A DNA stretch of 60,812 nucleotides, the filler included, from Hausera hauseri (lineage: Eukaryota): assembly GCA_046269625.1 (NCBI GenBank). It is 10 parts of 10 records of this genome, joined end to end, with 100 filler letters (N's around TTAATTAATTAA, not from the genome) between each part and the next. Parts side by side here need not be neighbours in the genome. Positions count along the whole stretch, not along the records: positions 21,123 to 28,794 come from JBJURY010001237.1; 9 more parts are not named here. One strand, written 5' to 3'. Shown in pieces: positions 9,734 through 48,059 of this stretch. The notes under the pieces are model-generated. The model searched no databases. It had not been told where the DNA came from and was given only the letters and a program-made list of their open reading frames with translations. Numbering within the stretch: position 1 is the first letter of the stretch; every line of letters begins with the position of its first letter. The position numbers and the translations under genes were made by a program.

Positions 9734-10219
9734 TTCTTTTTAAAGTTTCAATTGTATCATTTTTGTGTCTGAGGTCTATTTGAGCATCTGACAACTGTGA
9801 TTTGAGATTTTCCAATTTAACATTCAAAGAAGCAACTTATCGATCGGTCGGAGAATTTCCGAATTCCGTTCTTAATTAATCAAAAAGTTTATCAGATGAT
9901 GATTTGACTTCGAGTCTAGATATTTGTTCAATTAATTTATTCGTTTTCCTAACTCATCCTGAGAAGCTTTGATTTGTTCTTGTAGTTTGAACAGATGCAA
10001 ACGCTCGTTCGGGGACGGTAATTTTGCATAGGATGCTCGGCTACCTGTGTTTAACAGGAAACAAACCAAGATTCAGTGGTGCTCGCTCCTTCGACGAATC
10101 TTGGAAAATTTTCGAGGCGGGAAATCGGGCCCAACTATGAATCCGAAGCGACGGAAACGGACGCCTGGCTGCGTCCGACCAAATAGACCAGAGGGCACCG
10201 GCCACTGCGGGCACCACAT

Positions 10220-12746
10220 AGCTTCTGGCCAACGTAATGAACGATCCATCATGGTCAAAATGAACTGATGACCGTTTTCAGGAGGAAGGAGTGGCTTCAA
10301 ATGTTTGGTGATTTTAAATTTCTGGCAAGCCATGCATTCCTTAATCCACGCTTGCGCATCAGAACGCATTGACGGCCAAATTACCTGTGGGTGGAGTAAA
10401 CGAAAAGTGGCCTTAGCGCCAGGGTGGTGTAGCGAATGCACACTGTTAAACGCTTGCCGTTGTAAAGGTGGTGCGAAAATTATTACTGATTGATCTGGTT
10501 TGGAAGTGTCTAAAGCCACGCCGTCAACAATTGTGCAAGACTTAAAAGAATTAAGCATGTCCTGAGGTGGCTGGTAATGTTGAAGTTGTACTTGATAGAA
10601 GATTGGTGAAAAATTAATCGAACCAACCGTCCTAGATAAAAAATCGGCAAACAAATTATTAACCCCGTTAATATGTTTTATGTCAAAGTTAAATGTTGAC
10701 AAATATAATATCTGTCGTTTTTGGCGTGAGGAAAGATGTTTCATAGCCATGATGTTTAGCAAGGGCTTGTGATCGGTCTGTATGGTAAAATGGTGAGCAA
10801 CAAGAAGGTGGGAGAAATGCTTTAAAGCGAGAACGATGGCCAATAATTCTTGACCGAACGTTGAATACCTAGTTTCAGGGAATGTTAGCTTAAGAGAAAA
10901 AAATTCTGGCGGTTGATATTTTCTTTTGTGGACTTAATGAAGCACAGCACCTACCGCAGTTGTTAAAGCGTCTGTAGTAAGGATGAGTTTCGCATCAGGC
11001 TTAGGGAAAGCGAGAATGTCGACGGTCTTAATTCCTTCGCGTAGCTTATCAAACTTATCAACCAGTTCAGGTGTCCACTGAAATTGGCTTACGTTTTTTG
11101 CCGCCGCTTAAGTGTGCAAATGGTGCCTTACGTTCAGAGCAGTACGGCACATACTTATGAACGAAGTGCAAAGTTCCCAAAAAGCTTCTCATTTCTGTTG
11201 TTGTTCGAGGTAGCTACACCTTTTTATGGCTTCAACTCAATCGGGCTGAGGAGAGTGACCTTCAGCAGAAATAATGTAACTATGGAAATTTATACGCTTC
11301 TGGGAAAAGTAAAATTTGGCAGAATTGACCTGCAGATTATGCTGGTGTGAACGTCGCAAGATTGATCTGAGATGTTCCTCATTTTGTTGGTTCAAAGAGA
11401 AAACAACTAATATGTCATAAATATATGGGTGAGCATATGGAAAATGAGAAAGGATAGCATCAATGTGGCGTTGAAAAGTCTGTGCGGCATTCCATAGGCC
11501 GAAAAGCATGTACAGATATTTGTAAAGGCCAAAAGGAGCAGTTACGGCTGTTTTTAGATATGATCTGGTGCCACCGGAATTTGGTGGTAGGCTTTGAATA
11601 AACCAATGGTAGAATAAATTGTGATATTGTTAAGACGGTGTAAAATATCCTTAATGAGTGGTAGCGAACATGCATCCATTATTGTCAAAGTGTTCAACTG
11701 ACAATAATTGCTACATGGTCGAAAAGTTCCGTTTTTCTTTTGCACGACATGTAATGGTGATGACCATGGGGATTTAGAGCGACGTACAATGCCGAAACGT
11801 TCGAGTTCTAGAAATTCGGCTTTAACCACCTGTCTACGAGGAGGAGATAATGGACGCACTTTTTAGCGGATAGATCTTTGACGTTGTGTGACAATGTGGT
11901 GAAAAGTGGTAATTGCTGGAGTAAAGACTTCTCTTTTTTAATTATTCTAGAACAGGTTACGTTAATGAATTGCTGAAGACTTGCAGGTAATTGTAAAAAG
12001 TTTGGTGGGAGCGAGGTGGTTTTATCCGTAACTGATGCAATTTGGACGTTATTTGGTGTTCTAAAATGAAGTGGTATTCGATTCAGGATGGTAGTACTGA
12101 AGATGGTAGTATAGATTGTATTTTATCTAATGATTCGGCAGTGGTAACAGAATCACTTTCATCACCGTGCAAACTCCAATCGCCAGTAATATTGTTCATC
12201 AGTAATTTATAAAATATGGTACAATGATTGTAAGAAAAAGGTTTGTTCAACGGTTTTTTAATATCGGCTTTCGAGTAATATTCACCTGTACGACAGCCGA
12301 AATGGTATTGGCGTGATCAATTTGCTCCTTATTGCAACCACTTGTTAAGCAACGTTGCTTGCAATTGACAAGTAGATTATAGTGCGAAAGAAAGTCGGAT
12401 CCTAAAATGGCTGTCTGGACGTTTACAACGGTAAATGTCCAGTGAAACATTGAAGTAAATTTCGGAAGGGTAAAAGAAAGCCTGCATGTACCGGAAACGT
12501 GTAGCGGTTGTCCAGAAGCGGTAAATAGAAGTTTATTTTTGGATGAAGTGTGTTGAGTTGAAAAGTGAGCGGCAGTAAGGACATCGCTGCACCTGAATAG
12601 ACGAGGAAATCTATATGGCGGAATGTTGATAACGTAGTTACTGCTTTTACTGTAAATACGGTGAATGATAGTTTTTGGCTGGTAGAAACTGAAGAATGGC
12701 CTTCACCAAGACTCGTCGTAAGCTCTGGCGGCGGAATTAATTTTTT
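10220..12746 (-). pseudogene. pol: pol pseudogene (PR, RT, RNase H, 5' integrase)
   Basis: ORF fragments 12247-12450, 11554-11859, 11237-11509 and 10073-10843 with frameshifts. Integrase lacks the VHVDIVGP segment seen in the 35-kb copy and runs into unrelated sequence at ~10220. Confidence 0.9.
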
Positions 12747-14060
12747 GGCAGTGGTGAACTTGGGCGGCTGTTAGAAGACAAGACAGTATGTCCGACGTTC
12801 GTATGCTGTGTGCTGCTTCTAAAGGTACAACCAGGAATACACTTATGCGCCTCATTCTTAAATTTTGAGTGGTAGATGCACATAGGTTTGTTAACTTGAT
12901 ACTTTTGACTGTACAAGCGGCACCCGAGATGATATTTTTGTGATTTACGAGCAAACCTATCATGGTAGAAACAGATCAGCGATCGCGCAGGAGACGGTGA
13001 CCGACCTCTGGATACAGACCGTGTGCGATCGGAGGTGGAACTCTTTCGTTGAGACAAAGAGATTTTATTTAAACTATCATTGATATTGTTTATTGTATTA
13101 TGTAGGACTGCGTTTTCAGTACGCAACTGTTGAATTTGATATTCTAGTGTGTTGTCGTTTGCTGTAAGTGATGCAGAAATGATATGCTGTTTGTTTAGGT
13201 GTAAGACCTCGTAATTTTTTGCCTGCAAGTTCGGCTCAATTATCCAGCGCCGTCGATTCCTCGACGATGGTAAGCAGAGCCCTGATCTGAATCGGTAATG
13301 CATTTAGAAAGTAACGCCGTAATAGATAGGAATTATTTTGTTTTGCAACGCCGAGTGTTTGCAGTTGAGTGAGAGAGGTTCTGAGAAAATCGGATAATTT
13401 TTGTGTACCCATAGCATTATCATTGAAGAATCTATGGATTATGGAATCCATAGACAGTTCCTTGAGTTTCAAAACGGCATTATAAAGATTGGTGTACGGG
13501 TCGGAGTGTTGATAGATGTCTAAGATATCGTGAAGAGAAGTTTTTACTGTGTTTGGTAAGAGGCAAAGTAAACTATGAGCTTTGGCAGATGGATCAATAA
13601 TGTTGTTAGACTGCAACCAGAGTTTGTGAAAGTTAAGCCAGGTTTTGCTGGACTTTTCATGATCAGTAAAGTACTTGCATTAAGAACAAGTGTGTTTGGA
13701 TGGCGAATGGAAGGTGCATAAGCGGTGAAAGTAGATGGCATGGTTACGGTCGTTGATTTTTGGTGAAAGTGAAAGGTGATGGTTTAGAGGTAGTTTTGTC
13801 AGTTGTGTCAATGGTGGGCGAAAATTCTATGCCACCATAAATACGAATGTGTACGCGAATAACGACATAACGGGGTGAAGGAACAAAAAGGTTGCGGAAA
13901 TTGGCATTAATTACAGGTAGGTTGTTGTAAGTCAGGTAAAAATCAGAAATATTAGTGAAGCGTAGTAAGTAATTGTGCAAGTAATATACGTCAATAAAAT
14001 ACGTTGCATTGTGAGTAATTGGCAATTATTAAGGAAGAATAAAACGGAAAGTGCCAGCGT
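12737..14060 (-). pseudogene. gag: gag pseudogene with N-terminal ubiquitin-like domain
   Basis: FYLTYNN...IRVHIRIYGG (ends 13831), capsid-like MGTQKLSDFLR..YFLNALPIQIR, knuckles CFYH.. and CIYHSKFKNEAHKCIPGC, ends KN*. Confidence 0.8.
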
Positions 14061-15142: not shown

Positions 15143-15672
15143 GAGTATCTCATACACGTATTCTTCAACTAAATTATTTGCTGCTGCCTTTTCCTTTTCC
15201 AATGTGATCTGCACCTTCATTTGACTCTTTCGCCGTAAATTCGTTGATACGCTGCACGCTGTACTGCAAAATGGGTGCATTCAATGGAAGATCGATATGC
15301 TTGGTAAATATGTTTGATGCATCCACCTCAACTTTCACCGGCTTCACCACAGCCTCTACTAATTGCGCCTGGAAAAATGTGAAAATACCCTTGTTGTTTA
15401 CACGCAATTTTACGTAAACTTTCGAAGGTTCTCCATGGAAACTTGGCTGGACTTCGGGTATTGGGAATGATACAATCAATTTCTTGTTAGTTGGTATGTC
15501 ATCACCTTCAGAATATTTCGCTTCCAAACAGAAATCAGCTAATCTGTTAAATGTCCGTTGTTGCTATACCGGACATGAATGCCATTTTGGATAAATTTAT
15601 ACAGTCTCCGATCCGTCTTGATCCCCATAATTCAGTGAAACCGAATAAGTGCAAACGTCCGTAACACTAAAA
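15143..15672 (-). pseudogene. HSPA4: HSP110 (HSPA4/HSPH1/Sse1-like) substrate-binding-domain fragment
   Basis: FSVTDVCTYSVSL..YPKWHSCP..TFNR..FCLEAKY..SKVYVKLRVNNKGIF..IDLP..LEKEKAAANNLVEEYVYE aligns with HSP110 motifs; contains stops and a frameshift. Confidence 0.8.
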
Positions 15673-21122: not shown

Positions 21123-21890
21123 AAAGGAAGGTGGTTTTGGACAAGTAATCGGAGAGGTTATATTGACATACGAGTGTGAGACGAAAAACGTATCGATCAA
21201 CGTAGAAGAAAAGAGATGTATACAAGAACTTCCAGTGACATATCAGGACGTCCCAAGATTAGTAACACCAATTACAAGAGTGTTGCTAGCAAACGCCACT
21301 CAACCGACAATTTTGAGAGACTGTAAAACTAGCTTAGGAAAGCCGATGTTCAGACGTAGCGAAATTGACTGGGTAAGTTTACCAAACGGCGGTATTATTG
21401 CACCGCCTACCAAATTGACAGGAACAAACCTAATAAAAGGAATAACCGATGACAAATTTCAAGACAGCCGCGAAGGGTATTTATGGACCAAAAGAAGTAG
21501 AGGCGATCAGACAATTTCTCGCTTTTCCTCGTCAACACACACATGAATTAAACAGAGCAATGCATACAATATTGGAGGACTCGCGCTATCAAGCGAGATG
21601 GGAATCATTACTTGGTGTTGGCTATTACAAGAAAGTAACCACAGAAATATTAAACAAAATTTGGGGAAGATTCCTGATATTCGGACAAGCCGCGTCAGGA
21701 TTTCTAGCGATAGACTTCGTAATTCAATTAGTAAAAGCTATAATTCAAGCAATCATAAGTGAATATGAGATATATACTTTGACAGGATTCTCGTGTAAAA
21801 TTTTAACGGCTATTATTACACCCTTCGGTAAATTCTTAAAAGCTTATGAAGAAAGTAAATGGAAAACAAATGTGGAGCGACATGTGGGTT
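21123..21890 (+). pseudogene. Chuvirus-like glycoprotein (env-like), C-terminal half
   Basis: GEVILTYEC...CIQELPVTY...LVTPITRVL...C...P.F, KGIY..E.EAIRQFLAFP, KIWGRFLIFGQAASGFLAI..VIQLVKAII...Y.LTGFS matches the motif series of Chuviridae-type glycoproteins; frameshift near 21450. Confidence 0.78.
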
Positions 21891-22472
21891 ACCATAATCG
21901 AAAACGCAAAGGACACATTTGATTATAGACAGAAATTCATAGTCAATAAGACACGAAGAAATAATTCCGATAATGAAGAGACTAATGGAGGAGGCATCAT
22001 CACCAGGCCGAGTAGGCACAAAAACTACTCTGTTATGAAACTACCATTACCAATATTTCCACCAACGGCACCTATATATGAAGATAGCGAGAAACAATCT
22101 ATGAGCTCGTGCCAGATAGACATCTATCGGAAGCCGTTTAGTTTAGAGGATCCTTACGAAGGAACAAAACGCTATAGAATATTGCGCAAGATCCACGAAA
22201 CAGAGAGGACCTCGGCTCCACCTTATCGGTCAGCAGTCGACGACCACAATATAATTTACTCACCTACAATACCTAAGCCAAACGAAACGCAATTGATATT
22301 TACTCGAAGCTGTGAGGCACGAAATCTCCGAAACACAGATGTTCAGCCACCAGTTAGAAACCCAAGAGTAGAAAACGCGAATGGAGCGAATAACGAACTA
22401 TACCCAATTGGAGAGTTAAGACAGTTAGTCGAGCAGCCAGTTGGAACCACTGAAGTTACCATCAACGGTTAA
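21846..22472 (+). CDS. Pro-rich linker/cytoplasmic tail between glycoprotein and protease with late-domain-like motifs
   Basis: 208-codon open frame with PTAP (22062-22073) and ELYPIGELRQL (22395-22427); same frame as the downstream protease ORF, separated by one TAA. Confidence 0.55.
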   Translation: MKKVNGKQMWSDMWVTIIENAKDTFDYRQKFIVNKTRRNNSDNEETNGGGIITRPSRHKNYSVMKLPLPIFPPTAPIYEDSEKQSMSSCQIDIYRKPFSLEDPYEGTKRYRILRKIHETERTSAPPYRSAVDDHNIIYSPTIPKPNETQLIFTRSCEARNLRNTDVQPPVRNPRVENANGANNELYPIGELRQLVEQPVGTTEVTING

Positions 22473-22475
22473 AAA

Positions 22476-25400
22476 GTGTCTACCACACGACAGCCCAATA
22501 TAGCACCAAGCTATTACGGTACAGTAATCGAAGGCAGACCCTTCGCAAAGATTCAGTTGGAAGATTTGGAGCTTTACGCACTAATAGATACGGGATCTGA
22601 AATCTCACTGATAAAATATGATTCGATACCACAATTCTTACGGAAACAATTATATCCACCTCCTACGACAGACCCAGGAAGCATTGGAGCCTTTGGACAA
22701 TCGTAGAAAAGTAAATTTTGTTGGAAACCAGAGATTCACATAATGGGACAAATTTTTCATCACGAATTCTCAGTAATGGAGCCATTAACGGACGATGTAG
22801 TGTTAGGGTGTGACCTATTGAGACAACTACCTAATATATCAATCGATTTCAGTGCAGGCAAGTTGATAGAACTTGGTCCAATAAAGGAGTTAAAACCACT
22901 AAAGACAGAAAATTTGGAGAAGTGTGGATTCCAGTGGATGAAACCATACCATCTAGAACAGAAATCCTAATATATGCTCAGATACGTCAGGATGATAATC
23001 AGCCGATATATTTTGGACCAAAGGAATCGCTCGATCCAAACCTCGTGCTCAGCAATATTTTGACAAGAGTATCAACAGGCCGCGTGCCAATCAGAATAGA
23101 AAATAATGCGCCAACTCCAACCAAACTGTACGCCAATACTACTCTAGGCCACACGTATAGAGTGTCATCGATTACCATCGAAGAGAAGCCATATAAGGGT
23201 GCCGAATTTCCACCCCACGTTGAGACTAAATTTACACCAGAATCATATTGTCGATTCTACGAACTACTTTGTTGCTATAGCTCAATTATCGCGAGAGATA
23301 AAGAGGATATTGGCCGAGCCAAAACTTTGAGGCTCACGATTCCGCTTAAGAAAAAGCCAGGATCTAAAGACGAAATAGACTTAGAGGATCAAAAGATGCC
23401 GAAATGGTATCCTCCTCCACACTAGCTAAGGCCAGAGATAACTAAGGAAGTTGAACGAATGTTAAAGGCCGACATAATTAGACCAAACTATCGATCTTGG
23501 TATTCACCTATACTAATGGTTAAGAAGAAAGGTACCAGTAAGCACCGATTTCGTATCGATTACCGAGCGTTAAACACACTGATGGTGAAAGACTCTTCCA
23601 TTACCATCAGTAAAGGAAGCTTTAGACAGACTTTCGGTAGCGAAATGGTTTACTACGCTCGATTTGCAATCTGGATATTGGCAGGTAGAGATAGAGGAAG
23701 AAGATCGTTACAAAACGGCATTTAAGACACATTACGGTATATATGAATTTAATGCTATGCCATTTAGAATTACTACCGGACCGGGCATCTTTACCCGTAT
23801 GATGAATAAGATGCTGATGGGACTTGAACACGCATTCGCCTATTGGGACGATGTCATGATTGCCTCGAAAACGGAAGAGGATAACTTAAAGGATATCGAA
23901 GGTACGCTCATGAGATTAGAGCAGGCTGGATTAAAACTGAATCCCAAGAAATGCAAATGGGCTAAAAATGCTGTATCATACCTTGGACACATAGTTGGAG
24001 AAGGAGGATCAAAACCGGATAAATCATTATTAAGTAAGATATCGGATTGCATGGAACCTCAGAACCAAAAGGAATTAAGACATTGGTTGGGTTTGTGTGG
24101 GTATTATGCCACTTACGTGCCAGAAAACGCAAAGATAAATGCACCCTTGTATCGTTTATTAAAGAAAGGAATCAAATGGAAATGGACCGATGTTGAACAA
24201 AAGTCTTTTGATGAAATGAAGAAAATTATGATATCTCGACTTCAACCTACCATTTATAATCAAAACAGACGCCAATAAGGAAGGTATCGGATATGAACTA
24301 ACCCAAAAACAAGAAGACGAGGAATTAGAACACTCGATTGCATAAAGAGGACGTTCTTTAAAGAAAGAAGAAAAGAACTATTTGTTACGGAACTAGAAAC
24401 ATTAGCAGCAAAAGAATCACTGCGGCATTTTAATGTATATGTCTACGGACAAAAGATCATAATCGTTACGGATCATAAGGCAGTTACGACCTTGAAGGGT
24501 ACAGTGAATAATCCAACTTGTAGACTCAACAGATAGATTGAGGAGATATCGCGATATAATATCGAGTTCCAATAAAAGCCCGGAAGTAAGCATGTCGATG
24601 CTGACGCATTATCGAGACTTAAAACCAAAACAAGCGCAGTTACAGTAATGAAGAAAGCACACCTTAAAGATTTAATAGAAAGACAAAGGACTCTCACACT
24701 AAATAAGGCATAAAAGATTGCTGTTAAACAGAGAAAAGACAAGGTTATACAACAGATTATCGAGTTCGTCGAGACCAACGTAACAACCAAGGCTCATCAG
24801 TTATGGAAACACTTACGACAATATGGTCACAAATACTGCGTCGCTGGAAATTTGAACCGCGAAAATATGTTATATTACGAACGAAAAGCACGGAAATTAG
24901 TCGTCATACCGAAAGAACTACGAACGGAAGTACTCATGGCCGAACACGATTCATACTTAGCGGGACACATGTTATGGAAAAAGACATTAGAAAGGATTTT
25001 AAATAAGTAATATTGGCCGAGCATCTATATCGACGTAAGAAATTGGGTGAATGCTTGCAAAGCATGCGCAACTAAGCAAAGAAAAGTAAAAAAATTACGT
25101 CGCTGAGCTTAAACCTACTGACGTGCCCGATAGGCCAATGCAAGCAATGTCTATGGATATTGTAGGACCGTTACCTACAACATACAAAAATAACAAATAT
25201 ATTCTGACCTGTGTAGGTCGATTGACTTATTTCGTCGAGCTTATAGCGTTACTAGACCAAAAGGTTGAGACCTTGGCAGAAGCGGTAGTTCAGAAGATCA
25301 CTTGCAGATACGGGCCATCCGAACAAACATTTACACACCGAGGAAGAAACTTCACGAGTGAACTGTTCGAGAAAATTACCAAAATTTTTGAGATCGAACG

Positions 25401-26000
25401 ATTAACTACCACAGCTTACCTTCCCCAATGTAAAGGAATGGTCGAGTGAATGAACGCGACCGTTATACAGATCTTATCAACAGTAGTCACGAAGGACCAG
25501 AAAGATTGGGATAAGTTCTTAGAAGACACACAGTTCGCCATTAATACTACTCCACATCCTGCGACAGGATTCACTCCATTTTTTATGATGTACGGTTGAG
25601 AAGCTGTACTGCCTACCGACTTAGGACTGATTTCATATAAAACAAGAACAGAAGACTTAGAGTAAAATTTTGTCGAGGTATTACAATCAAGATTACACAA
25701 GTGTTGGGAAATAATCAAAGACGTATCTAAAGACTACCAGGAACAATTTAAGAAGCAGTATGATAAGAATGCTAAACCGCACGATTTAGAACCCGGAAAC
25801 TGGGTTTACGTACACTACCCAGTGGCGGAAAAAGGCACATTTCTTAAACTTACTAGAACCGGTAGGGACCTTATGACGTTACTAAGGTTACGCCGACCAC
25901 AGTTTATATAAATAAAAACGGCAAAGAAGAGGTTGTATCGATTCAGAGAGTAGTAAAGACGGAAATAAGGCCGGATAAACGCTATCATTTGCGTTCAAAT
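22476..26000 (+). pseudogene. pol: Gypsy pol pseudogene (PR, RT, RNase H, integrase)
   Basis: ALIDTGSEISL and VLGCDLL (PR); SPILMVKKK, DYRALN, SGYWQV, KTAF, YWDD (RT); TDHKA (RH); MDIVGPLP, TTAYLPQCKG, GPY (IN); ends RYHLRS; many stops/frameshifts. Confidence 0.93.
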
Positions 26001-27356
26001 AAGATTAATAAAGAAAAGAAAACATCGTCAATCGTAACCAGACCGGTATCATGTGTACAAATAATTCTTGCCCTATCGTTAATCGCTTCGTATATGCCTA
26101 CAGCGAAATCAATAACTAGAGCCGAAAAACTACGATACGCGATGAAACGCCGGGATATCCAAAACATGCAGTCACTTAGAGTACGTGATTTGGATTGGAG
26201 TAAACCATGTGCATGGTTCGAAGCAAGCGAACCGGTTCAGAGCTATGTAAAATTTCAGATAATATTTGTCACCGGAAACACGATGAGAACGTGCGATTTT
26301 CCGTAGGGACATTACAAAAGATGTTGTGATTTAGACTTTGGACGAGCCTACGCATACAGATTTTAAATGTTTTATTCTAATCAGTTTGGAGCTCAAGCTT
26401 ATATACATTTAGAACTTGTAATAAGAATGCCCCAACGGAAGGATGCAAATCAAGCCAAGACGGACGAAACAATCCGAAGCACTGACCCGTTTAAAAGGCT
26501 CTTAGATTATAACATTATGGGAATTTACAAGGACTTGAAGAATCAATGCATACGAATTGAAACTAAGATAGAACTGCCTGGAGACAGACAAATTTCTATC
26601 CGATTTATACCATTGAATGCTTCTATTCCTATTCCAAAGTATTGTTTTTTGGCCAGACACCGATCTACTACGTGCTGCGTAATACAATTATGACAAAAGT
26701 ATCAGTTGCAATTCGATTTGTATAATACGTACCCCGGAGAGCCAAGCACTTATTTGCGTGGATATCGCCCGAGAATTGGAATATGGGAGCTTCCTCTTCC
26801 AACCACTACAAGTAAACCATCTACAAGTCCAAGTACAACTCTTCCTACTACGATCGTCACTTTGGACAAAATACCAGGAAGCATGCCAGTTAAGATTTTG
26901 GCAAAAAGCGACAAAATTGTATTTTATGCAGAAGAGACACTTAGTCGAGACATCAAAATTGAATGTCATACTTTGCACACCAACCAAGTCGTGATCCTGA
27001 AAAAGAATAGTCAAGAAGTTGAATGCAGGTTATTACGACCACAACATGACTATATAATCAGAATTACCGCAAAGGGTAAGAATCCTAAAACTTTAACAGT
27101 ACGAACTCTTGGCAATAAAGTTGAAGTAATGCCATATAAAGATATCAGTACTCAAAATGTATTCACCACGGAAAGTTCTATTGAGCCGAGTAATTTACCG
27201 TTAATAACTATATTTAGTTTGTCAATTTTCGTTCTTGTCATAATAACAGCGATGATTTTTCTAGTTCCCAAAAATTGTAATAAACGCTGTAAAAATCAAA
27301 AGGGATATAAATGGGTAAACGAGCACCGAGACGGACCTTATGATAGCATAACCTGA
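25989..27356 (+). pseudogene. Type I membrane protein (signal, Cys-containing FN3-like domains, S/T stalk, TM, short tail) in frame with integrase C-terminus
   Basis: ORFs 25989, 26367 and 26706 share one frame broken by three stops. Signal-like VQIILALSLIASYMPTAKS, FN3-like LLRPQHDYIIRITA, TM LITIFSLSIFVLVIITAMIFLV. Confidence 0.65.
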
Positions 27357-27949
27357 CAACTACAGATCGGGTTATCCTATCATCAGACAGAGAAAATGTT
27401 TTATTTCAAAACGATGACCTGTCTTAGGATTAACCTTTATTTTTATTTTAGCAGAGTAAGTATGGCCGAGAAGGCGAAAAATTCAGCAGTCAGTTCCAAT
27501 TTCGATATCGATGATTTCTTCCAGCAGCACGTCACTGTTCTTAAACCACTGTCCAAAAGTCTATACCGACAAATTGGAGAAACCCGAAAATCCAGAACTA
27601 TCTAGAGTTCAACCAAGAGAGTAAAAGACCAAACGGACTAAAATGGGGCTTAGAAGAGAATCGACTGGTTCGATTATATGCCATGAGAAATCCAAAAGAT
27701 GCACGAGCATACCTTTTAAGAGATCTAATTCAATATGAGCCGACACATTAGCAATTGTACGTACATGTCGCTGATGGAGAAATTAAATACAGAATCGTAG
27801 GACAATCCTGGAGTACGCAAGAAGGGCAGCAGTGGAAGTTTAGTACTTATGAGCTATGTTGCTAAAGCCTCATGAATTATGCCATAGAATTTAGGATCGC
27901 GGACCTTCCGACCAAAATCATGATCGAGATGACGTAGCGAACCGATGTA

Positions 27950-28645
27950 ATGAAGCCGCTACCACAGTTATTATACGTACAGAAACCATCGGAAGACGAG
28001 GTAGAGCAAAATGGAGAATCTTACAGATTAGTTGCAGACGGTAGGAACACCAGAATACTGGCCGTAAACTATGGAGAAAAAGATAACAGGTGGTATGCTC
28101 CAATTGAGGTCTCTATCAAAAATATTAATGGAGAAGAGATCCTAAATAAAATAATCGCGCCTCGAGTTATAATAAAGGACACTTTTCTTGACGTCACAGG
28201 AATTACGAAAGTTCAGCTTGAAAAAGGAAAGGATTTTTTGGAGATCCAAGAAGATATAAGCCATTGCTTATATGGATACGTCGTTACCGGATTCCGAGTG
28301 CACGAAGCTCTGGAGCGACTAGGAATTAGGCAAGAATACATGGCCGGAATTTGAGAAGTGAGCCGAAACCCAACAGTAGTGAGTCAAGTAGAAAACACGT
28401 TGATGCGGAAAAGAGGTTGTCTGCTTCCTTCCTCAGCATCTCGCGAATCACAGTTCAAAATGATGCTAAAGGCCATGAATGGCGAACAGTTAAAATTCCC
28501 TAAACTAGTGACAACGAGCCAACGAACTAAATTTATAAAGGACACCTATGACCATCTACGAGGGGATCACGAATGGAAACCCAGAAATCCCATACAGAAT
28601 GCGATATGCGACAACAACCCCAAGGCACTGATACAAAAATTTTGA
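27950..28645 (+). pseudogene. REX4/ISG20-like DEDDh exonuclease homologue with catalytic residues substituted
   Basis: EVSIKNINGEEILNKIIAP..DVTGIT..L..G.DFLEIQ..I...L.G.VVTG....AL..L follows the REX4 pattern RVSIVN..G..V.D.FVKP..VSGI...F...Q......L.G.ILVGH...DL; one in-frame TGA at 28352. Confidence 0.65.
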
Positions 28646-28894: not shown

Positions 28895-29200
28895 GAATGC
28901 TCCATCGGTTATACGAGGACGGGGAAAATCGACGTCTCTTCGACTCGTCGGTTTTCCTGCCATTGTTCCTGAGACTGATGGCGGCAACCGACCGCATTTA
29001 CGAATCCCTGGCTCCTTCGAAAAGTCAGTTAATTCCAGGCTGCCGTACCATCAAAGCACTGCGCACACTGACGTCGAGCTCCAGCTCGGACGATATTCGA
29101 GCCTGTCCACGTCGACGTCGTAGACTCGGATCGTCTTGATCCGCTACCGAGGAGTCGTATGCCTCCGCAGATGGCGATTGTCATGAAAATAAATGTTCCA
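28895..29200 (+). repeat. Dispersed GC/CpG-rich coding-like repeat, homologous to 53520-53870 (-)
   Basis: HRLYEDGENRRLFDSSVFLPLFLRLMAATDRIYESLAP vs HRFYQDGGNRRLFDLSVFLQVFLTLIAATDRLYESSAP. Confidence 0.75.
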
Positions 29201-29313
29201 ACAATTATCCAGTTTTGTTCATTTATATTTTTGTTTACTTGCTGTTTTATTGTTTTGGCGCAATGAGGTTATGGGGCAGAATTATGGTCTGTATTAAGGC
29301 AGAAACTTCTAAA

Positions 29314-31925
29314 ATGGTGGCACAGAATACCGCACACACGTCCCTTTCGCACAGGACCGTACATACTGGTTCAGGCATTCCGATAAACTCAGTCGTTGAA
29401 AACAATCCTGCTCAAACACCGCACACATCAGATGACAACAGTCAGGATAAAAATCAGAGTAATGCCGTCGAAAACAATCCGGCTACACTCATTCACATCA
29501 CCAAACGTGATTACACAACACCCGCTGACAATATCTTCAGCGCGGCTATCATTCAGGCAATCACAACGAGTGGAACTGAACAAAAGTCGAAGCCTGAATA
29601 TCCAAGCCAGGTTTCACGCACCAACACAGTCAAATCGGCACACAATTCCGATGACACAACAAAACCGCAAGTGATGCAAATTTCCATACGCGGATTACGC
29701 AACACGAAAGCATATCGTTTTTTGACACACATGTCTCTTAAGGCAATGCTACAACAGCTAGCCATTTCATATCCGGACCACATTTTTTCACGCAACGCGA
29801 ACATTTTGCGTCCATAGGATAGTCCAATTTTGGATCATTTCCCTAAAAATAACGCGACACTGCTCGCTACTCCGAAACTAAAAGGAGGCGCTGATGACCA
29901 CAAGCCGGACAAAAAAGCCGCAACTGCATCATCAGCACCGGCCAAACCTAGCAAATTAGCATGTCCCACTTTCTTCATAGGTTTGGACGGAACTCCATTA
30001 AAGTGGTTCCATGTGTTTGAAACATGGACTACTCAATTCAACATCACCGGCCAACTAAACGAGTCCTTAACACTAATACAATACCTGCAGCCAACAAGGC
30101 TCGCAGCAATAACGGATTTGGACACGTTACTGTCAAATGAAAAGGCGTTTGATAAAATCAGAGCAACAATATGCAAAGCATACCTGCCATCCCAACAGGA
30201 CCAGTTCAACTTGGTCTTCACCAAGCGACAGACAGGGAATATGAAACCTTCTGCTCTGCTTCAAAAGTTATGCTCAGAATTGAGCAATGCTGAGCTGGAC
30301 CTCCACAGCAATCAAATTCAAGCGGTACTTGTGCTATTACCGCCCGATACCACTTTGGGCGATGTGGCATCAAAAGCCAACAAAATACATGAGTGCACTA
30401 AAGGTACCGTAGAATCCGCATCAACGGAAAACATTCACTGCGTCACGGCGACCCACCAAAATAGATTGAACACCATTATTTCCGTACTGCACGCACTTGT
30501 AACGCACAAGAATCCGTCAGCCAGGGACTGTGTTTACATGTTTATCCTTTTTATATTTAAAAGTTCCATACACAAGGATGAGAACACTAAAGCAAATTTT
30601 CCAAAATTTGCCATTTCCACACACGATTTGGAGAATACGCCCATAAATGTTTCCATGGTTGTCAATTCGACAAGCCATCCGCAAATATAAAAATGCGAGG
30701 CACTTGCATTTATCACAATTATTTCGGTCCAGATGTAAAAATCTGTCGACCCAGCTGCAAATTTCACAAACCTAAATGGGCTCAGACGACCAACGGCACT
30801 TCGACTGGAAACTCAATCACCACAACTGCCGTGCACAAATAGCGAACGCATTGTCGATGCTATTTTCACCCTCAAGGCGGAGCCACTACACTCTGACATC
30901 TCGAAACAACTCCATTTTCTAATCGACACTGGTGCAGCTTTATCGCTGATACCTAGCGCATACGCTAGACCTACGCTGGTCTCCCATGCATCGCTCAAAG
31001 CTGCCAATGGCACGCGTATAGCAACTACAGGTACACTGTACCTACAATTTCACCTACAAGGCCGAAGATACGCTTGGTCATTCATATTGGCCGATGTCAT
31101 GCAACCAATCCTTAATTCTGACTTCCTAGATCACTACGATCTCACAATTAATTGCCTAAATCAACAACTCACCAGCGGGGGCAATCATTACCTCCACCCG
31201 CATTCACATTAACTACAAATGCTGTCACGGGCATTAAAATCGCAAATCCCATTGACATCGCTCCATTGCTGCAAGCGCAATACCCTAACCTGTTGAAACG
31301 CTCAGCACAACCAACACAGAAAGAGATGAATACATCACACTCTCTCGTCACATCATGTGACCGACCGATTCGATAACCCCGGAGGGAGCTTGACCCTGTC
31401 AAGCGAGCAGCCGCGGAAGCCGAATTCCGACACCTTGAAGAAACAGGCATCATACGCCATTCCACATAACCGTGGGCATCACCATTGCACATAATTCTCA
31501 AAAAGAACGGATCATACCGGCTTGTGGTGACTATAGAATGTTTAGTAACGTCACCATCCACGATTCATATCCAACACCGTTGGTAACAGACATATTGCAT
31601 TGCCTACATGATGCCGCAATATTCAGCACAATCAATCTGGAAAGGGCATACCATAAGATCACAGTGGCTACCGAAGATATTCCAAAAACTGCCGTAATAA
31701 CGCCTTTTAGTTTGTTCGAGTATCTACGTATGCCTTTTGGCTTACGGAATGCAAGTCAAACATTCCAACGCCACATAGACCAAGTCCTCATCGACATGCC
31801 TTATGCAATCTCGTATATAGATGACATATTGATTGCATCACCCAATGAAGCGACTCAAAAAACACATCTCGAACATGTTTCATAGGTTGAATGAAAACAA
31901 CCTAGTTAAACATAAACAAATGTTC
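29314..31925 (+). mobile_element. Decayed CsRn1-type Ty3/Gypsy element, divergent subfamily (UBL-gag, PR, RT; 3' truncated)
   Basis: MQISIRG...TPKLKGG (29674-29889), capsid P.FF...P.KWF..FE, two knuckles (CHFH..CFHGC, CIYH..CRPSC), FLIDTGA, PWASPL, YIDD. Confidence 0.9.
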
Positions 31926-35049: not shown

Positions 35050-38000
35050 AAAAGGTGTAGAAGGTTTAATTTGGGGTGCATCATCAACGAAATAGGCTGG
35101 CTTTACGTTGTTGATGTGTACCGCCAGTTCCTTGCCGTCTTAAAAATAATGGCATTGTGGAAATTCAATTGCACGAGTTTGTAAGGCCCAAAATACCGTG
35201 GTTGAAAACTGCACGGCATTTGGTTTCTCAACCAGACGAATTTTGCATAATATAGATCCTCCGGTAAATATGTTCTATTGTTATTCAAGATCCTGCAGAA
35301 GAAATCTTTGATGACTAAAACAAAATGATCTTGTGCTAATCGGATAGTTTCGTCTGTCGGTGTATCTTCTAAGGCCGTTAACTCAAACAATGAACGTACG
35401 GGTGTTCCGAAAAGGGCTTCAATAGGTGAATAACCTGTAGAGGTAGAAGGGTTGTTACGCCAACCCAGAAGGATCAACGAAAGGAGAGTAGTCCAACTGC
35501 TATTGGATTCTGCGAGGATCCTCAATGACGCTTTTAGTGTTCTGTGGATTCTCTCTAGAAGACCACTCGATTGAGGGTAATACGGTGACGTGTGGATGTG
35601 GCTGATTCCTAATCGGTTAACGAGAGATTTAAACAAATTGGACTCAAACTCAGTACCTTGGTCCGTAATAATGAATCTAGGAGATCCAAATCTGCTGATC
35701 CACGTGCGTATAAAAAAGTAGGCTATTGTGTCCGTATTGGTGCTCCGTAGTGGGACGGCTTCCGGCCATCGTGATGAACGATCCATCATGGTTAAAATGA
35801 ACTGATGACCGTTGTCAAGAGGAAGGGGGCCAACAATATCAACGTGAACAGACTTGAAAAGTAATGTGCAAGGGAAACGGTATAATGGTGGCTTCAAATG
35901 TTTGGTGATTTTAAATTTCTGGCAAGCCACGCACTCCTTAATTCACGCTTGCACATCAGAACGCATAGTAGGTCATATTCCTTGCCGGTGGAATAAGAGA
36001 AAAGTCGCCTTAGCACCAGGATGATGCAAAGAATGTACACTGTTAAACGCTTGCTGTTGTAAAGATGGTGCGAGAAGTATTACGGAATGACCCGGTTTCG
36101 AAGTGTCTAAAGTCACGCCGTCAACAATTGTGCAAGACTTGAAAGATTTGAGCATGTCCCGAGATGGTTGGTTCTGTTGAAATTGTGCTTGAGTAAAGAT
36201 AGGTGAAAAGTTCATCGAAGCAACCGTTCTTGATAGGAAATCGGCAACCAAATTATTGACGCCGTTAATATGCTTTATGTCAAAGTTGAATGTCGACAGA
36301 TATGATATTTGTCGTTCTTGGAGTGAGGAAGGGTGTTTCATAACCATGATGTTTAGCAATGGCTTGTGATCGGTCTGAATGGTAAAACGGCGAGCGACAA
36401 GTGGGAAAAATGCTTCAAAGCAAGTACGATGGTTAATAATTCTCGATCAAACGTTGAATATCGAGTTTCAGGAGATGTCAGCTTACGGAAAAAAAATTCT
36501 AATGGTTGATTTTCTCCTTTGTACATTTGATGAAGTATAGCACCCACCGCAGTGGTTGAAGCGTTTGTAGTAACAATGAGTTCCGCGTCAGGCTTAGGGA
36601 AAACGAGAATGTCGACGGCCTCAGTTCCTTCACGAAGCTTGTCAAAGTTATTAACCAGGTCAGGTGTTTACTGGATTAGCTGATGTTTTTTGCCGCCGCT
36701 TAAGTGAGCAAATGGTGCCGTAAGTTCATAGCAGTACGGCATATACTTGTGAACGAAGTGTAAAGTTCCCAGAAAGCTCCTCATTTCTGATGTTGTTCGA
36801 GATAGTTGTATACTTTTGAGAGCTTCAACACGTTCTGGCTGAGGAGAATGACTGTTAGCTGAAATGGTGTGTCCTAGAAAGTTAATACGCTTTTGGGAGA
36901 AGTGGCATTTTGTAAAATTAATTTGTAAATTATGGTGGTTAAGTCGTTGGAAACAGAACGAAGGTGTTCCTCATGCTGTTTGGTTGAAGAGGAAGCAATC
37001 AAGATATCGTCGATATATGAGTGCGCGAAAGTGAAATCCGAGAGGATAGAATCAATGTGGCGTTGGAAAGTCTGTGCAGCGTTGCGTAAACCAAAAGGCA
37101 TATAAATGTATTCGTACAGACCGAAAGGTGTCGTAACGGCGGTTTTCTCAATGTCCTCAGATGTTACAGGAATTTGATGATATGCCTTGGCTAAGTCTAT
37201 GGTTGAGTATACTGTAGTAGAATTGAGCCGGTGTAGAATACCCTTAATTAATGGTAAAGGATATGCATCCATAACAGTTAAAGTGTTTTGTTGACGGTAA
37301 TCACCGCATGGTCTAAAAGATCCATCCTTTTTTGACAACGTGTAAAGGTGAAGACCAGGGCGATTTAAATCTGCGTACAATACCGGAGCGTTCAAGGTTT
37401 ATAAATTCCTCTTCGACAGCTTTCCTACGACGGGGTGACAAAGGGCGTACCTTTTGACGAATAGGTCTTTGGTGTTGCGTTATGATGTGATGAAAAGTGC
37501 TGTTTGTAGGTGTGAAAGTTCGGTCATTCTAGATTAAGCGGGGGCATGAATTGAGTATGTATTGCCGTAGGCTTGCAGGCAATTGCGAAAGATTGGATGA
37601 TGATGGTGGTGTTGAATCAATATGTGCTGTGACGAGTGATGTGTGATAGTTATTGAAATCAAGAGGGATTTAGTGTAGGATAGTAGCATTGAAAATAGTG
37701 TTTGAAGAGGTAATTTTGTCAAGTGAATGTACTGAACCAACACAATTGTTGTTGTCAGAACCAAATCTTGACTGAATATCAATATTGTCGTTAAAAAATT
37801 TACGAAATGAAGAATGCTTGTTGAAGAAAGTTGCATTACTTACAGAATGTTTGAGTATAGGCTTCCGCAGGTAGATCTTTTGCGCCTTAGCGGATATACC
37901 ATTTATTTGCTTGGTAAGATATCCAGTAGGGTTACGTTTCAGACACTGTTGTTTGCAATCAACTAAAAACTTATAGTGCGATAAGAAATCCGAACCTAAG

Positions 38001-38341
38001 ATTGCTGTGCGGACGTTAGCGACGGTAAACGTCCAATGAAATGTGGAATGGAATTTTGGTAAAGCGAACGACAATGTAGATGTACCTGAAATGTCAAGCG
38101 GTTCTCCAGAAGCCGTAAATAACAATTTAGCTTTGAATGGTGAATTTTATACGGGGAACGTGAGTGGTAGCAGAGAAACTGCAGCGCCTGTGTCGATAAG
38201 GAAATCTATGGATTAAATTGTTAGTGTGATTATCGAAGCCTTTAGTGTAAAGACTACAAAAGAAGAGTGTCGGCAGGTAATATTAAAGGAGTTGCCTTTG
38301 CCAGACTCTGCCGTGAGTACTGGCGGCGAAATCAGTTTTTT
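35050..38341 (-). pseudogene. pol: pol pseudogene (PR-RT-RH-IN)
   Basis: ORF fragments 37670-38125, 36874-37395, 36353-36547, 35973-36359 and 35103-35930. Confidence 0.92.
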
Positions 38342-39650
38342 GGATTGGTAAGTTAGGGCGATTACCTTTCAAGAAACTGGAATGTTTATCAGTAGCGTAG
38401 TTATTGTTAGTTTTATAGTTACGACCTGAAATACAATTCCGAGCTCTAGATCCGAATTTTGCATGATAGATGCAAACTATATGATCTGAGTATAGATTCG
38501 GCGAATAATATTTACAACTTGAACAACATTTATTTGCGTTGTTATTAAATTTGTCGTGGTAGTAACATACAAATGACCGCGTTGGTGACGGTGTTTGATT
38601 TCTGGAAGGAGAACGTGTTTGATAAGGTGAGGAAGCATTACGTCGATGTAAGGAAAGGTCATTCAGCTTGTCGTTGATGGTGTTGATTGTGTGTTGTAGT
38701 GCCTCATTTTCTGCGCGTAACTGATTCAATTGGTGCTCGATAGATGTATGTCGCTGACTGCCATCGGTTGTAATAGCGGCTGATATGATGGGTTGTGATT
38801 GGATTTGTAAAACTTCGTGTGCTTTATCGGCCAACTCAGCTAGTTTATCGAAGGCTGTAGAATCTTCAACAACTGTAAGCAAAGCCCTAATTTGAATTGG
38901 TAAAGCGTTAAGGAAATATCGTTGAAGTAGTTCCGGATTATGTTCCTTGGTGACGCCTAGAGTACGTAAGTGATCCAACAAAGTGCGTAGGAAATCACTA
39001 GGTTTTTGTGTCCCCATTTCGTTTCCGTTAAAGAAGCGTTGTACTATAGAGTCAATTGGTAGTTCTGTCAGTTTTAACACAGCATCGAACAATTGGGTAT
39101 AGGGGTCAGAGTGCTGAAAGATGTCCAGTAAGTTAAGGATTGAGGCCTTTATGGAGTTTGGTAGAAGGTAGAGTAGATTATTAGCTTTGGTTAACGAGTA
39201 TATAATGCCGCTGGATTGAAGCCAGAGTTGATAAAAGTGGAGCCAAGTTTTGCTAAAATTTTTATTATCTGCGATGTATTCAGAGCAATGTGAGGGTGTA
39301 TTTGTAGGTCTTTTATTAGATGAGTTAGTGTTGATTGAAGTAGGGGGATGGTTCGATTTGGAGTAGTAAAGAATGGATTTGGTTTTTGTGCTCGGCTTAT
39401 CTGTAATATCGCTGGTTGGTGAGGAAATCATACCGCCGCGGATTCTGTGATGTATATGAATACATAGAAAATAATATGAAGATGTAAGGTGTGGGAGGTC
39501 AGTTAAAATGAAACCATTGTGGGTTAAGTAGACGTCATTGTGGGCGGTAGCTTTACGAATGATGTCATATAATTGTAGTGTATCGATATAGTGTGTGATA
39601 TTTGTGGAATGTATCAATATGTTATTAGCAAAAAGGTAGATGGGAAATGA
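38283..39650 (-). CDS. gag: Ubiquitin-like domain-Gag fusion ORF
   Basis: Open frame FPIYLFANN...VYLTHNG...IHIHHRIRGG|M, capsid-like region, coiled coil, RS-rich stretch, two CHCC knuckles; a late frameshift carries it past the natural KN* end. Confidence 0.85.
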   Translation of the reverse strand, partial: SFPIYLFANNILIHSTNITHYIDTLQLYDIIRKATAHNDVYLTHNGFILTDLPHLTSSYYFLCIHIHHRIRGGMISSPTSDITDKPSTKTKSILYYSKSNHPPTSINTNSSNKRPTNTPSHCSEYIADNKNFSKTWLHFYQLWLQSSGIIYSLTKANNLLYLLPNSIKASILNLLDIFQHSDPYTQLFDAVLKLTELPIDSIVQRFFNGNEMGTQKPSDFLRTLLDHLRTLGVTKEHNPELLQRYFLNALPIQIRALLTVVEDSTAFDKLAELADKAHEVLQIQSQPIISAAITTDGSQRHTSIEHQLNQLRAENEALQHTINTINDKLNDLSLHRRNASSPYQTRSPSRNQTPSPTRSFVCYYHDKFNNNANKCCSSCKYYSPNLYSDHIVCIYHAKFGSRARNCISGRNYKTNNNYATDKHSSFLKGNRPNLPIQKTDFAASTHGRVWQRQLL

Positions 39651-39687
39651 CGTTGGTAAACAGCAAGCTGCGTAATGTGGTATTTCT

Positions 39688-41156
39688 TCATGGTTTAGTT
39701 CGTGTTTTTTCTATTGGTTGAGTCGTTGAGAACATGATTTTAGCTCGATCAGTCCCAATTGTCAAGACAAGTTGGATTCTATCAATGTGTACAGTCGTAG
39801 GTGTGTTAAGACCCAGAGATTTTCCATTTTCAGTCCGTTTGATTAGTTGTGCTTCAGGGAACCTTTTGTGAACGTCTAAGATGGCATGGGTGAATAGTGT
39901 GTCGTATGATGAATCAGTATTATGCATGTAGAATAAAATTTTTTGGAAACCCAATACCAATCAGCTAAATAATTTCCTTTTATAAAACCTTCACGAAAGG
40001 CATCGAGATGCCTCTCGGATAGATCGGGTAATATATTGAGCAGATGAACATCAGTAATTAATTGGATAGCAACATCGTCAAAACATTCAAATTTTTTGTT
40101 TCTGGACCAACTCGATTGTATTACATTTCGGTGATGGGTATGCGACGATGTATTGTTACAATTACTTATCTTGTATTAAATCGGTGTTTTATTATAATTT
40201 TTTGAATAATTGATTCTGTTTCAATAATGTTGGCATGTAGTTTCTCGTCGGAACGTTAACTATTGACGTAATGGTTCTGTATGTTGAACTTTGGTGAAAA
40301 TGTCATTCGGTTATTCGTTAATGGGTGTACGTTAGGATGTTCAGCAGGGTATGTGCGCGTGTATAATGTGAGAGCAATGATATCCTTCGTCGATTTATTC
40401 GATTGGTGATTGCAGATCGAGTAAGAACTACTATTGTCGATATTCAATATAAGTATTCGACCCTGCATCCGTGGAATATTTGTGCGAGATGAAATTCCTA
40501 TTTGTTTATAAGGAATTGATCTGTAACTGTTTTGGCCCTTTCACCATCAAAACGTTCTGGTTAATGTTCTGGTATAAACTGTTTTGAAAGATATAGAGTT
40601 CGTGTATTATATATGAAAGTTCAGTGTCATGTAAAAAGAATCCTTTGTCACCTCAAAATTATTATAAACGTCTACAGTTGTCAAAATAGCTATTCTGTTT
40701 TGACTACATTGAATATTACACAGACTATCTTTAAATGTAAAATAGGTATCGGTAATACTTTGGGACTTATTGTGGATAACAGGTAACCATTCAATATCGA
40801 TGGGTAATACGTTCGAAGTGAACGAGATGTATGTCCTCAAACAAATAAATTTATGATGCCAGTCGTTATTTTGTAATGGATACATGTTAACGAAAGGAAA
40901 ACAAGCAGAGTAAAGTAACAATCGAGTATATTCTTGATAAAAAATATTTCCAATTCACGATTAAAAAATTATCGTGACGATCGAAATCGTTTATTTGAGT
41001 TTTATTTGTGCAAGCATAATAGCTAAACAGTACGAATAAAGTATTTTTGTCTTTATTGTATCCAAACAAATTGGGATAACGAATAGTCAACTGATACGTA
41101 CAATCGAAAATTTTGGTGAATATAGTAGTTAATTCATACGAATCAAATGAACTCAA
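39688..41156 (-). pseudogene. Decayed coding fragments, possibly DOCK-family GEF (DHR1/DHR2 pieces)
   Basis: Weak resemblance only: LTIRYP..KNTLFVLFSYYAC (DHR1-like) and HKRFPEAQLIK..FSTTQPIEK (DHR2-like). Confidence 0.25.
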
Positions 41157-41159: not shown

Positions 41160-41606
41160 ACCACATCGGTCATTAAATTTGTGGTCGAATACAGACCCAT
41201 CCTCTTAGACAACGTCTTCTAATCTATCAATGGTTCTTTCAAAAGGATTCAATATTGTTTGCGTTAATCCACACATTTGTGATGTCGAATCCCATCCATC
41301 ACTGCAATGGACAACAATGTTTTCGCCGGGATCAAGTTTCTGGGTAATGTAAAATGATGTTTCGAGAATCAATTGGAAGTACTTCAGTCGGCCGCCCTTT
41401 TTAAGAGGAGAAAGGAAAGACGGATATGCTTGTTTAGCGTGCCGGTATGTTTTTAAAATTTGTTCTAAAATGGATCTGAATACATAGATATATTTGATTG
41501 GTTTCAGTATTATAATGTCTTCATTGCAACGAGCTGAGAAACCTACTATTGGTTGACTGTAGCGACATAAAGCAGATTTGATAGGTTTATGGTAATAGGT
41601 CATTAC
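41160..41606 (-). pseudogene. Myotubularin (MTMR6/7/8-like) phosphatase-domain fragment
   Basis: YYH...LCRYSQPIVGFSARCNED, VVHCSDGWDSTSQMC (catalytic Arg lost), NPFERTI, HKFNDRCG; internal deletion and a stop. Confidence 0.88.
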
Positions 41607-41706
41607 NNNNNNNNNNNNNNNNNNNNNNNNNNNNNNNNNNNNNNNNNNNNTTAATTAATTAANNNNNNNNNNNNNNNNNNNNNNNNNNNNNNNNNNNNNN
41701 NNNNNN
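41607..41706. other. Artificial contig spacer
   Basis: N-run with TTAATTAATTAA core. Confidence 0.97.
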
Positions 41707-41937
41707 AATGGGTTTTTACGGTCATCTTGTCTGAGATCCAGTAAACGACATTTGGATAACGGGTTGAATTGGATTGTTTTACTTATTCATGGATACGTTG
41801 GTAAGAGTTGTATTCAAGGAAGTGGCAGTAGTGTTGAAATTAACGTTTGTCTTTTTGCACGACAAGATCATCATTTCGCCGGCATTAGATTCATGAAACG
41901 AGGTGTAAATCTATGTGGCAATGTTGCGAAGGAAGTT
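41707..41937 (+). pseudogene. FIG4: SAC-domain phosphoinositide phosphatase (FIG4-like) fragment
   Basis: W..LIHGYVG...LFARQDHHFAGIRFMKRGVNLCGNVAKEV matches FIG4 IIHGF..LIARRS..FAGTRFLKRG.N..G.VANEV. Confidence 0.75.
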
Positions 41938-41946
41938 TTTTATCCT

Positions 41947-42200
41947 ACTCCATTATTGTACGATATTGTACGGCTCCAACACACTGAACATATTATCCCT
42001 ACTCCAGAGGGTTAACGACTTAATAAAGAGTAACATTATTTCTACGAATTTTAACTTTGAAAGCGTGTTAGATAACATAACAAGTGAATTGCTAAGTTGT
42101 CGAATTATGCTCTACTCTGCTATGTTTCCGCAAACTGTACAGTCATTTCTAAAAAAGCACATAAAAGATTCTTATGAAATCAATCTAATGAACGATGAAG
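41947..42200 (+). pseudogene. DDX6: DDX6/Dhh1/Me31B DEAD-box helicase fragment (motif Ib to III, DEAD motif deleted)
   Basis: DIVRLQHTEHII.TP(fs)RVNDLIK...IMLYSAMFPQTVQSFLKKHIKDSYEINLM. Confidence 0.8.
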
Positions 42201-42355
42201 GAGGAAAGTTAATGGATATTGTTTCATACATGAATATTCTATCACCGAGATTAGGTACGATAAATTTTGACAATAAATTCTTTTATGGGTACGATTCTTA
42301 TATGGTACTGCGGAAAAGTGATTTGAACTTTTGTTTAACTTTTGAAAAAATCAAA

Positions 42356-43890
<1,535 letters not shown>

Positions 43891-44319
43891 CTCAACCAAA
43901 GACATTTTATTGTCTCCGTTTAATACTGTCCAGACTCGCCCAAACAAGTAGCTGACATTCGAGCGGTGATAAAGGCCGAAACGAAAACATTGTTTTGGTC
44001 AAATAAACGTCGACAAGTACTAGCGCCTGTTAAGCAATTAAACAAACGTTGTCGCAATCGTTACACAGATTCGATGAAAAACATTTGGAAATATTTTCGA
44101 GATCTCATCGTTGTCAAGCAATTAGTTCTTTTCAACTCCTGCCTCACAGATATTACCGCTCATGAGTCGAGGAATAATTTGCGGGATATATTCATTCTGT
44201 TGTCACCTAATGACCTCTGTACGGGGATACGCAGCAAACTTTACAGTCGCGTTGTTCACGCTGTGAGAACATTTATTTCCTCAATACATGTCAATATGTC
44301 CCGTGCTCACCACCTCTTG

Positions 44320-47613: not shown

Positions 47614-47713
47614 NNNNNNNNNNNNNNNNNNNNNNNNNNNNNNNNNNNNNNNNNNNNTTAATTAATTAANNNNNNNNNNNNNNNNNNNNNNNNNNNNNNN
47701 NNNNNNNNNNNNN
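47614..47713. other. Artificial contig spacer
   Basis: N-run with TTAATTAATTAA core. Confidence 0.97.
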
Positions 47714-48020: not shown

Positions 48021-48059
48021 TCGAGTTTTTTAATCTATTGGAGGTCTATCGTCAGCTAG

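Follow-up and report, generated by a model that had tools for sequence, protein, structure and literature searches.

In a stretch of 60,812 nucleotides from Hausera hauseri (the window), which consists of short contigs chained by N linkers, a 7.7-kb contig (21123-28794) carries part of a retroelement that encodes a gB-type fusion glycoprotein ahead of pol and, behind the integrase, a second membrane protein whose domains are predicted to be of FN3 type. The frame of the integrase tail runs into the gene for this second protein, and fusion of the two is probably a trait of the family. We tentatively regard the second membrane protein as an attachment protein that acts beside the fusogen and is cut from the Pol precursor, a role favoured here over a host-surface modulator, a Pol anchor, a separate spliced gene and a passenger.

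Genetic organization of the element

The contig contains, in this order, the gB-type fusion gene (env), a spacer, protease, reverse transcriptase, RNase H and integrase (PR-RT-RH-IN), the FN3-type membrane protein gene and one further gene. The PR-RT-RH-IN order recovered with Pfam is that of Ty3/gypsy elements: the broken pol gene (22473-25997, + strand) matches RVP (E 0.0024), RVT_1 (E 3.3e-28), RT_RNaseH (E 6.1e-7), Integrase_H2C2 (E 8.8e-7) and rve (E 8.2e-7), with the RVP and rve matches lying under the curated cut-off. The integrase tail is without a Pfam match, and its GPY (25866) and RYxLR (RYHLRS, 25980-25997) motifs carry labels that we presume to apply. On the same strand, a gB-type (class III) gene for a fusion glycoprotein is present with its C-terminal part (21124-21922). 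This part is interrupted by a frameshift, has a hydropathy-defined transmembrane segment near 21701 and matches PF24664 (Monjiviricetes_fusion) at E 1.4e-6 and 1.9e-18. The latter match ends approximately 550 bases before the protease, and the order of the Pfam matches thus places env ahead of pol in this element. The contig starts inside env, and gag and the LTRs lie beyond its end; no internal repeat was found within it. Env and pol of this copy are broken by stops and frameshifts, and the copy is dead. The frame changes between env and the spacer, a stretch that differs in length among contigs.

The family is large, with 20079 contigs of run X1 (possibly the window's own source) and 1911 of run X2 placed at a threshold of at least 80%; in each run, none of the 30 bins is left empty. 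Summed contig depth was lower over the ectodomain of the FN3-type protein than over pol in both runs, a measure that cannot rank the parts of an element. No second copy of the FN3-type gene was found within the window.

The spacer frame between env and protease (21840-22472, +) contains the late-domain-like motifs PTAP (22062) and LYPIGELRQL (22398). Both motifs, which were first chosen by eye, occurred jointly in none of 20000 shuffles. In six frames the window, which includes satellite and N, yields 121620 residues, and among these this PTAP is the sole PTAP or PSAP. In HIV-1 p6, motifs of these types recruit Tsg101 and Alix, according to the available text of PMC2651531. The spacer motifs suggest, at the level of sequence, that elements of this family form budding particles. 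A literature search for late domains (PTAP, ESCRT) combined with gypsy retrotransposons found nothing. The spacer motifs are located between the env transmembrane segment and the protease, as is an APPY motif at 22215, and p6 of HIV likewise precedes the protease.

Downstream of the FN3-type gene, the element continues with another broken gene (27465-28645, +), which is weakly DEDDh nuclease-like and has a homologue, P0005, with 53% identity (E 3e-76). One X1 contig spans 27359-27748. No Pfam match was obtained for this gene at 27465-28645, SDN1 and PolC exonuclease were reached at E 1.1 and E 1, respectively, and the position of the first DEDDh aspartate holds asparagine in both of two sequences (by eye). 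It is possible that the gene encodes an inactive DEDDh nuclease.

Layout and homologues of the second membrane protein

A phmmer search of 1.84 billion representatives gave two matches to the window protein: P0002, an uninterrupted protein of 479 residues (39% identity, E 3e-83), and P0003, a C-terminal piece of 189 residues (45% identity). Both are ENA singletons, considered here at the protein level. A word-based search among 2877 candidate proteins (E 0.01) found no match to the window protein, and no related loci were found in JGI metagenomes or IMG/VR. A search of PDB sequences gave a single match, a chance one to the transmembrane segment (E 0.56), which was discarded.

The protein has the layout of a type I membrane protein, with a signal, an ectodomain, one transmembrane helix and a basic tail, as judged from hydropathy and alignment. 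Of its two hydrophobic segments, the first covers residues 14-38 (mean hydropathy 1.9) and the second residues 400-431 (mean hydropathy 3.0). On the + strand, a basic linker (25998-26045) is followed by an internal signal-like segment (26046-26111) with small residues at the likely cleavage site (by eye). This segment is the best-kept region of the protein, identical to P0002 at 15 of 26 positions compared with 34-46% in the domains; the signal of P0002 itself lies below the 1.6 hydropathy threshold, yet it is 58% identical to that of the window. The ectodomain consists of domain 1 (26163-26438, with stops at 26304 and 26364), domain 2 (26499-26798, with a stop at 26691), a Thr/Ser/Pro-rich stalk (26799-26870), which corresponds to a region of low model confidence in P0002 (residues 263-322, pLDDT <50), and domain 3 (26871-27122), which carries an LxPxxxY strand. 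The transmembrane helix (27201-27266), already proposed in the sequence-only reading, is a hydropathy peak of 2.3-3.0 in all three sequences, and the short basic tail of approximately 29 residues (27267-27356) has a juxtamembrane cysteine and a terminal YxxI-T, both kept in 3/3 sequences. Domains 1 and 2 contain four cysteines each and domain 3 two, and P0002 has kept all ten, together with the signal segment, the transmembrane helix, the juxtamembrane cysteine and the terminal YxxI-T. No conserved furin-type site was found.

By sequence, domain 2 duplicates domain 1: the two align in P0002 with z 9.1 (0/300 shuffles), although within the window copy with z 2.0 only. Unit 3 gave z -0.3 and 2.6 against units 1 and 2 of P0002. 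Of the three cysteine-containing units, each with a tyrosine-containing strand, that had been described earlier, the strands are present and the third unit is not an equal repeat of the other two. The Thr/Ser/Pro stalk is likewise present, with its main stretch between units 2 and 3 and only a short stem before the membrane, and of the two tyrosine motifs named for the tail, YKWV occurs in one of three sequences and the terminal YxxI in all three. That the protein was captured from a host stays an inference, as a host donor gene was sought among the 1.84 billion representatives and none was found; the codon-position GC of the FN3-type gene resembles that of env and pol and is uninformative on the donor.

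Continuity of the integrase-tail frame

The frame of the integrase tail, which includes GPY and RYHLRS, is open to 26303 and reaches a terminal stop at 27354-27356, interrupted by three internal stops (26304, 26364 and 26691), compared with 31 stops expected from local composition in 455 codons (P(≤3) = 2.5e-10). The 103 open codons past RYHLRS have a probability of 7.5e-4 by local composition. It had been noted from the sequence that the frame passes RYHLRS into a signal-like peptide, and this is confirmed. Upstream of GPY, the integrase of this copy is broken by stops and frameshifts, and 'in frame with integrase' is therefore established for the integrase tail only; for the tail, the in-frame fusion to the integrase C-terminus claimed earlier is supported. 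No in-frame Met was found ahead of the hydrophobic core, the only Met (26094) being located behind it.

Variants from the two runs were examined over 25890-26140, where 40 of 46 are listed and each was classed singly. Among the 40 listed variants, 27 fall on third positions and 28 are synonymous in the integrase-tail frame, with no stop and no new Met; the same 40 would introduce five and four stops into the other two frames. Within the linker, 7/9 listed variants are synonymous in the integrase-tail frame and none gives a stop or a Met (p 0.008 for third position), and no indel at 20% was found among the variants listed over 25890-26140. Four of 16 listed contigs extend at least 31 letters on both sides of 25997, three of them gap-free and one reaching 26089, and five contigs of X1 connect the two sides of the linker through undetermined letters. 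Because the linker variants are mostly synonymous in the integrase-tail frame, fusion of the integrase tail to the membrane protein is probably a trait of the family rather than of this copy. A host exon block caught by a single copy, with no role of its own, is very improbable, as contigs from two runs span the gene and reach across its flanks on either side, the variants are biased towards synonymous changes and an uninterrupted homologue exists at 39% identity.

A stand-alone form of the gene is likely in a relative. In P0002, Met occupies positions 1 and 10, and the first residues show no match to the linker; since this intact homologue begins at its own Met, the gene may stand alone elsewhere, and fusion to Pol would not be universal or not be needed. 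A word-based search (E 0.01) of 4397 longer proteins (840-2395 residues) found no Pol fusion, which is weak evidence. The FN3-type gene might also be a separate third gene here, expressed through splicing or from a start codon of its own, with the open frame incidental; such an arrangement would fit either of the surface roles discussed below, and we consider it unlikely. The Met residues just ahead of the P0002 signal point in this direction, as do two in-phase AG sites (25855 and 25885) with at least nine upstream pyrimidines, and LTR elements typically express their third ORFs as distinct units by way of splicing (available text of PMC5408684). Against it stand the lack of an in-frame Met before the hydrophobic core and the lack of a stop in this copy or in the 40 listed variants, so that ribosomes on pol would read on anyway. 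Slightly less probable still is that the fusion serves mainly to tether Pol to the membrane where budding takes place, with the ectodomain secondary: the high conservation of the signal segment and the coding constraint on the linker would agree with it, whereas the retention of 10/10 ectodomain cysteines at 39% identity, and a P0002 that is apparently not tied to Pol, would not.

Predicted fold

The window protein modelled alone gave a poor model (pLDDT 41, best Foldseek E 1.4e-3), which was not relied on. A model of P0002 built from a three-sequence alignment was of middling quality, its mean pLDDT being 53.7, with 62-78 in domain 1, 53-62 in domain 2 and 64-76 in domain 3. With this model, Foldseek returned 435 PDB matches at E ≤0.001, led by FN3 fragments, with the three-domain fibronectin FN10-12 at the top (E 1.5e-10). 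In a VIA structure comparison over 48161 chains, of which the best 50 rows were considered, domain 3 (P0002 residues 321-401) superposed on IFNAR2 D2 (Z 9.7, rmsd 2.6, 76 aligned residues) and on fibronectin EDB (Z 9.5), and domain 1 (residues 75-171) on DCC FN1 (Z 8.4, rmsd 3.1, 88 aligned residues). Domain 2 had no clean single-domain row among these matches, and its FN3 likeness is derived from its sequence similarity to domain 1 (z 9.1). We take 47 of the best 50 rows to be FN3 modules or receptors built of them; the other three are Ig-like sandwiches of other kinds that score nearly as high (Z 8.8, 8.4 and 8.3). Identities to the fold neighbours are 8-18%, and none of the three sequences reaches the curated 25 bits of Pfam fn3 (PF00041), the best being P0003 with 13 bits (E 0.12). 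Atlas matches to FN3 clusters scored 0.88 and serve as leads only. The domains are thus predicted from the model to be divergent members of the FN3 type, outside PF00041, in accordance with the FN3-type fold assumed before any model was available.

In the viral structure library BFVD, the best rows comprised FN3 proteins of phage tails and of algal viruses, together with two proteins from herpesviruses, and no fusogen was found among the 38 named of the best 50 rows. Furthermore, the FN3-type protein had no match to a Pfam fusion family in the sequences searched, and the all-sandwich model argues against a fusogen. As the gB-type fusion gene of the element lies upstream of pol, the FN3-type protein is probably not the fusogen, and the earlier reading is supported in this respect.

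Possible function of the second membrane protein

In the attachment reading, which is our first choice although held with caution, the integrase-tail frame would run stop-free into the signal-like segment, the three FN3-type domains, the transmembrane helix and the tail, across a linker that appears, with support from the variants, to have evolved as coding sequence in this frame. Pol would be cytosolic, and the internal signal would open translocation, so that the FN3 domains enter the ER, where disulfides would form between conserved cysteines that hold the predicted folds. Signal peptidase would free a type I membrane protein, with integrase either trimmed from or left on the signal anchor. 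The terminal YxxI could sort the protein to the budding membrane, the late-domain-like motifs would recruit ESCRT, and the ectodomain is proposed to bind a host surface molecule and to hand the particle to the fusogen.

The presence of a fusogen plus PTAP and LYPx3L motifs in the same element favours this reading. Against it, related class III fusogens, among them rhabdovirus G and baculovirus GP64, need no partner for attachment and fusion. The available text of a survey of 1512 errantiviruses (PMC13524379) names no second surface protein, which also counts against it. A broader proposition, that a lineage of enveloped reverse-transcribing invertebrate viruses uses two-glycoprotein entry, with a gB-type fusogen before pol and an FN3 receptor-binder behind integrase, both released from one membrane-threaded polyprotein with PTAP and LYPxL for ESCRT budding, is more doubtful.

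The same protein, processed in the same way, may instead act on the surface of the producing cell as a host-receptor decoy or mimic or as a superinfection blocker, which we consider possible but rather less probable than attachment. Its fold neighbours include receptors of the cytokine, adhesion and phosphatase kinds (IFNAR2, IL-22R1, gp130, Dscam and CD45), and the tyrosine motif of the tail and the juxtamembrane cysteine are conserved; a common fold at 8-18% identity, however, shows no function. The tail, with its approximately 29 residues, is without an enzyme domain, and no host counterpart was found among the 1.84 billion representatives. An ITIM-like consensus needs a conserved residue two places before the tyrosine; as no residue is conserved there, the tail is without such a consensus. 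The element also carries other non-core cargo, as do Burro elements (available text of PMC6431247), which would suit a modulator. If the protein is a receptor mimic, it would point to the host pathway manipulated by such elements. In the attachment reading, a conserved second surface protein would provide a concrete, expressible and ligand-screenable candidate for how gB-type errantiviruses find their target cells.

Comparison with known elements and proteins

The GAG-ENV-POL layout with an HSV/gB-type ENV has been reported for errantiviruses of Nematoda, Bryozoa and Platyhelminthes (Chary and Hayashi, PMC13524379), and the element described here resembles these in its gB-type env before PR-RT-RH-IN and in being a many-copy animal element. 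It differs, as far as the available text of that paper goes, in the second membrane protein behind integrase and in frame with it; where that paper deals with an extension of integrase, it is a chromodomain. 'Fibronectin' and 'FN3' occur nowhere in its main text and seven supplements, and six short motifs had no match in its supplements, of which up to 400 characters per cell were covered.

Giant gypsy-like planarian elements (Burro/GYPSM1; PMC6431247) share the env ahead of pol and the presence of extra cargo. Burro env is located in frame between gag and pol (PMC6431247), which sets a precedent for membrane proteins within such polyproteins. The extra Burro cargo may form ORFs of its own or belong to the polyprotein as subdomains (PMC6431247). 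The present copy changes frame between env and spacer. The cargo given in the available text of PMC6431247 comprises MATH, BIR, ankyrin, BCL2 and SUMO-like domains, with no FN3 named, and none of it was recognized on the 7.7-kb contig. LTR elements of bdelloid rotifers are similar in that their extra 3' genes (third ORFs) include small transmembrane proteins and DEDDy nucleases, but in the available text of PMC5408684 these are separate ORFs, with no FN3 protein and no env ahead of pol. The poxvirus decoy described in the available text of PMC5998005 is an Ig-domain protein and offers no FN3 precedent.

With cellular FN3 receptors (class II cytokine receptors, DCC, Dscam and RPTPs), the protein shares tandem FN3-type domains, a single transmembrane helix and a tyrosine motif in the tail; unlike these, it has 8-18% identity to them, no Pfam fn3 match, a stalk inside the ectodomain and a very short tail. 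No cellular orthologue was identified. Herpesvirus entry uses gB plus a separate receptor-binding protein, and, by analogy only, two glycoproteins might share out attachment and fusion here as well. Literature searches over openly accessible text came upon no retroelement with an FN3 protein. The env-before-pol layout is published, and in the text covered no printed account of an FN3 membrane protein downstream of integrase came up. The Pol of such elements can have membrane proteins on both flanks, a topology that is known from RNA-virus polyproteins and is not known from retroelements, and surveys ending at integrase miss genes.

Other contents of the window

Decayed gypsy-like elements were identified at 10073-13679 (-), 29140-31885 (+), 35103-39710 (-) and 44518-50300 (+), with no env among the ORFs listed. 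ORFs at 50818-51685 (+), in which a basic helical region comes after two hydrophobic segments and which have no Pfam match, are possibly the 5' part of another element. Two copies of approximately 90% likeness (41909-44600, + and 56975-59750, -) adjoin gypsy-like DNA and join helicase-like and ZFR-like pieces (by eye; zf-met E 2.9e-6). A whole contig (15850-21022) consists of degenerate C/T-rich satellite with a period of approximately 8 bases. Gene fragments include an HSP70-like one at 15174-15563 (-; E 9.1e-5) and a myotubularin fragment at 41205-41654 (-; E 4e-23). Furthermore, the window contains an unbroken leucine-rich-repeat frame of 437 codons (6332-7645, +; LRR_8 E 3.5e-31) and an unbroken fibrillarin frame (55584-56540, +; E 2.8e-54), which is possibly a retrocopy.
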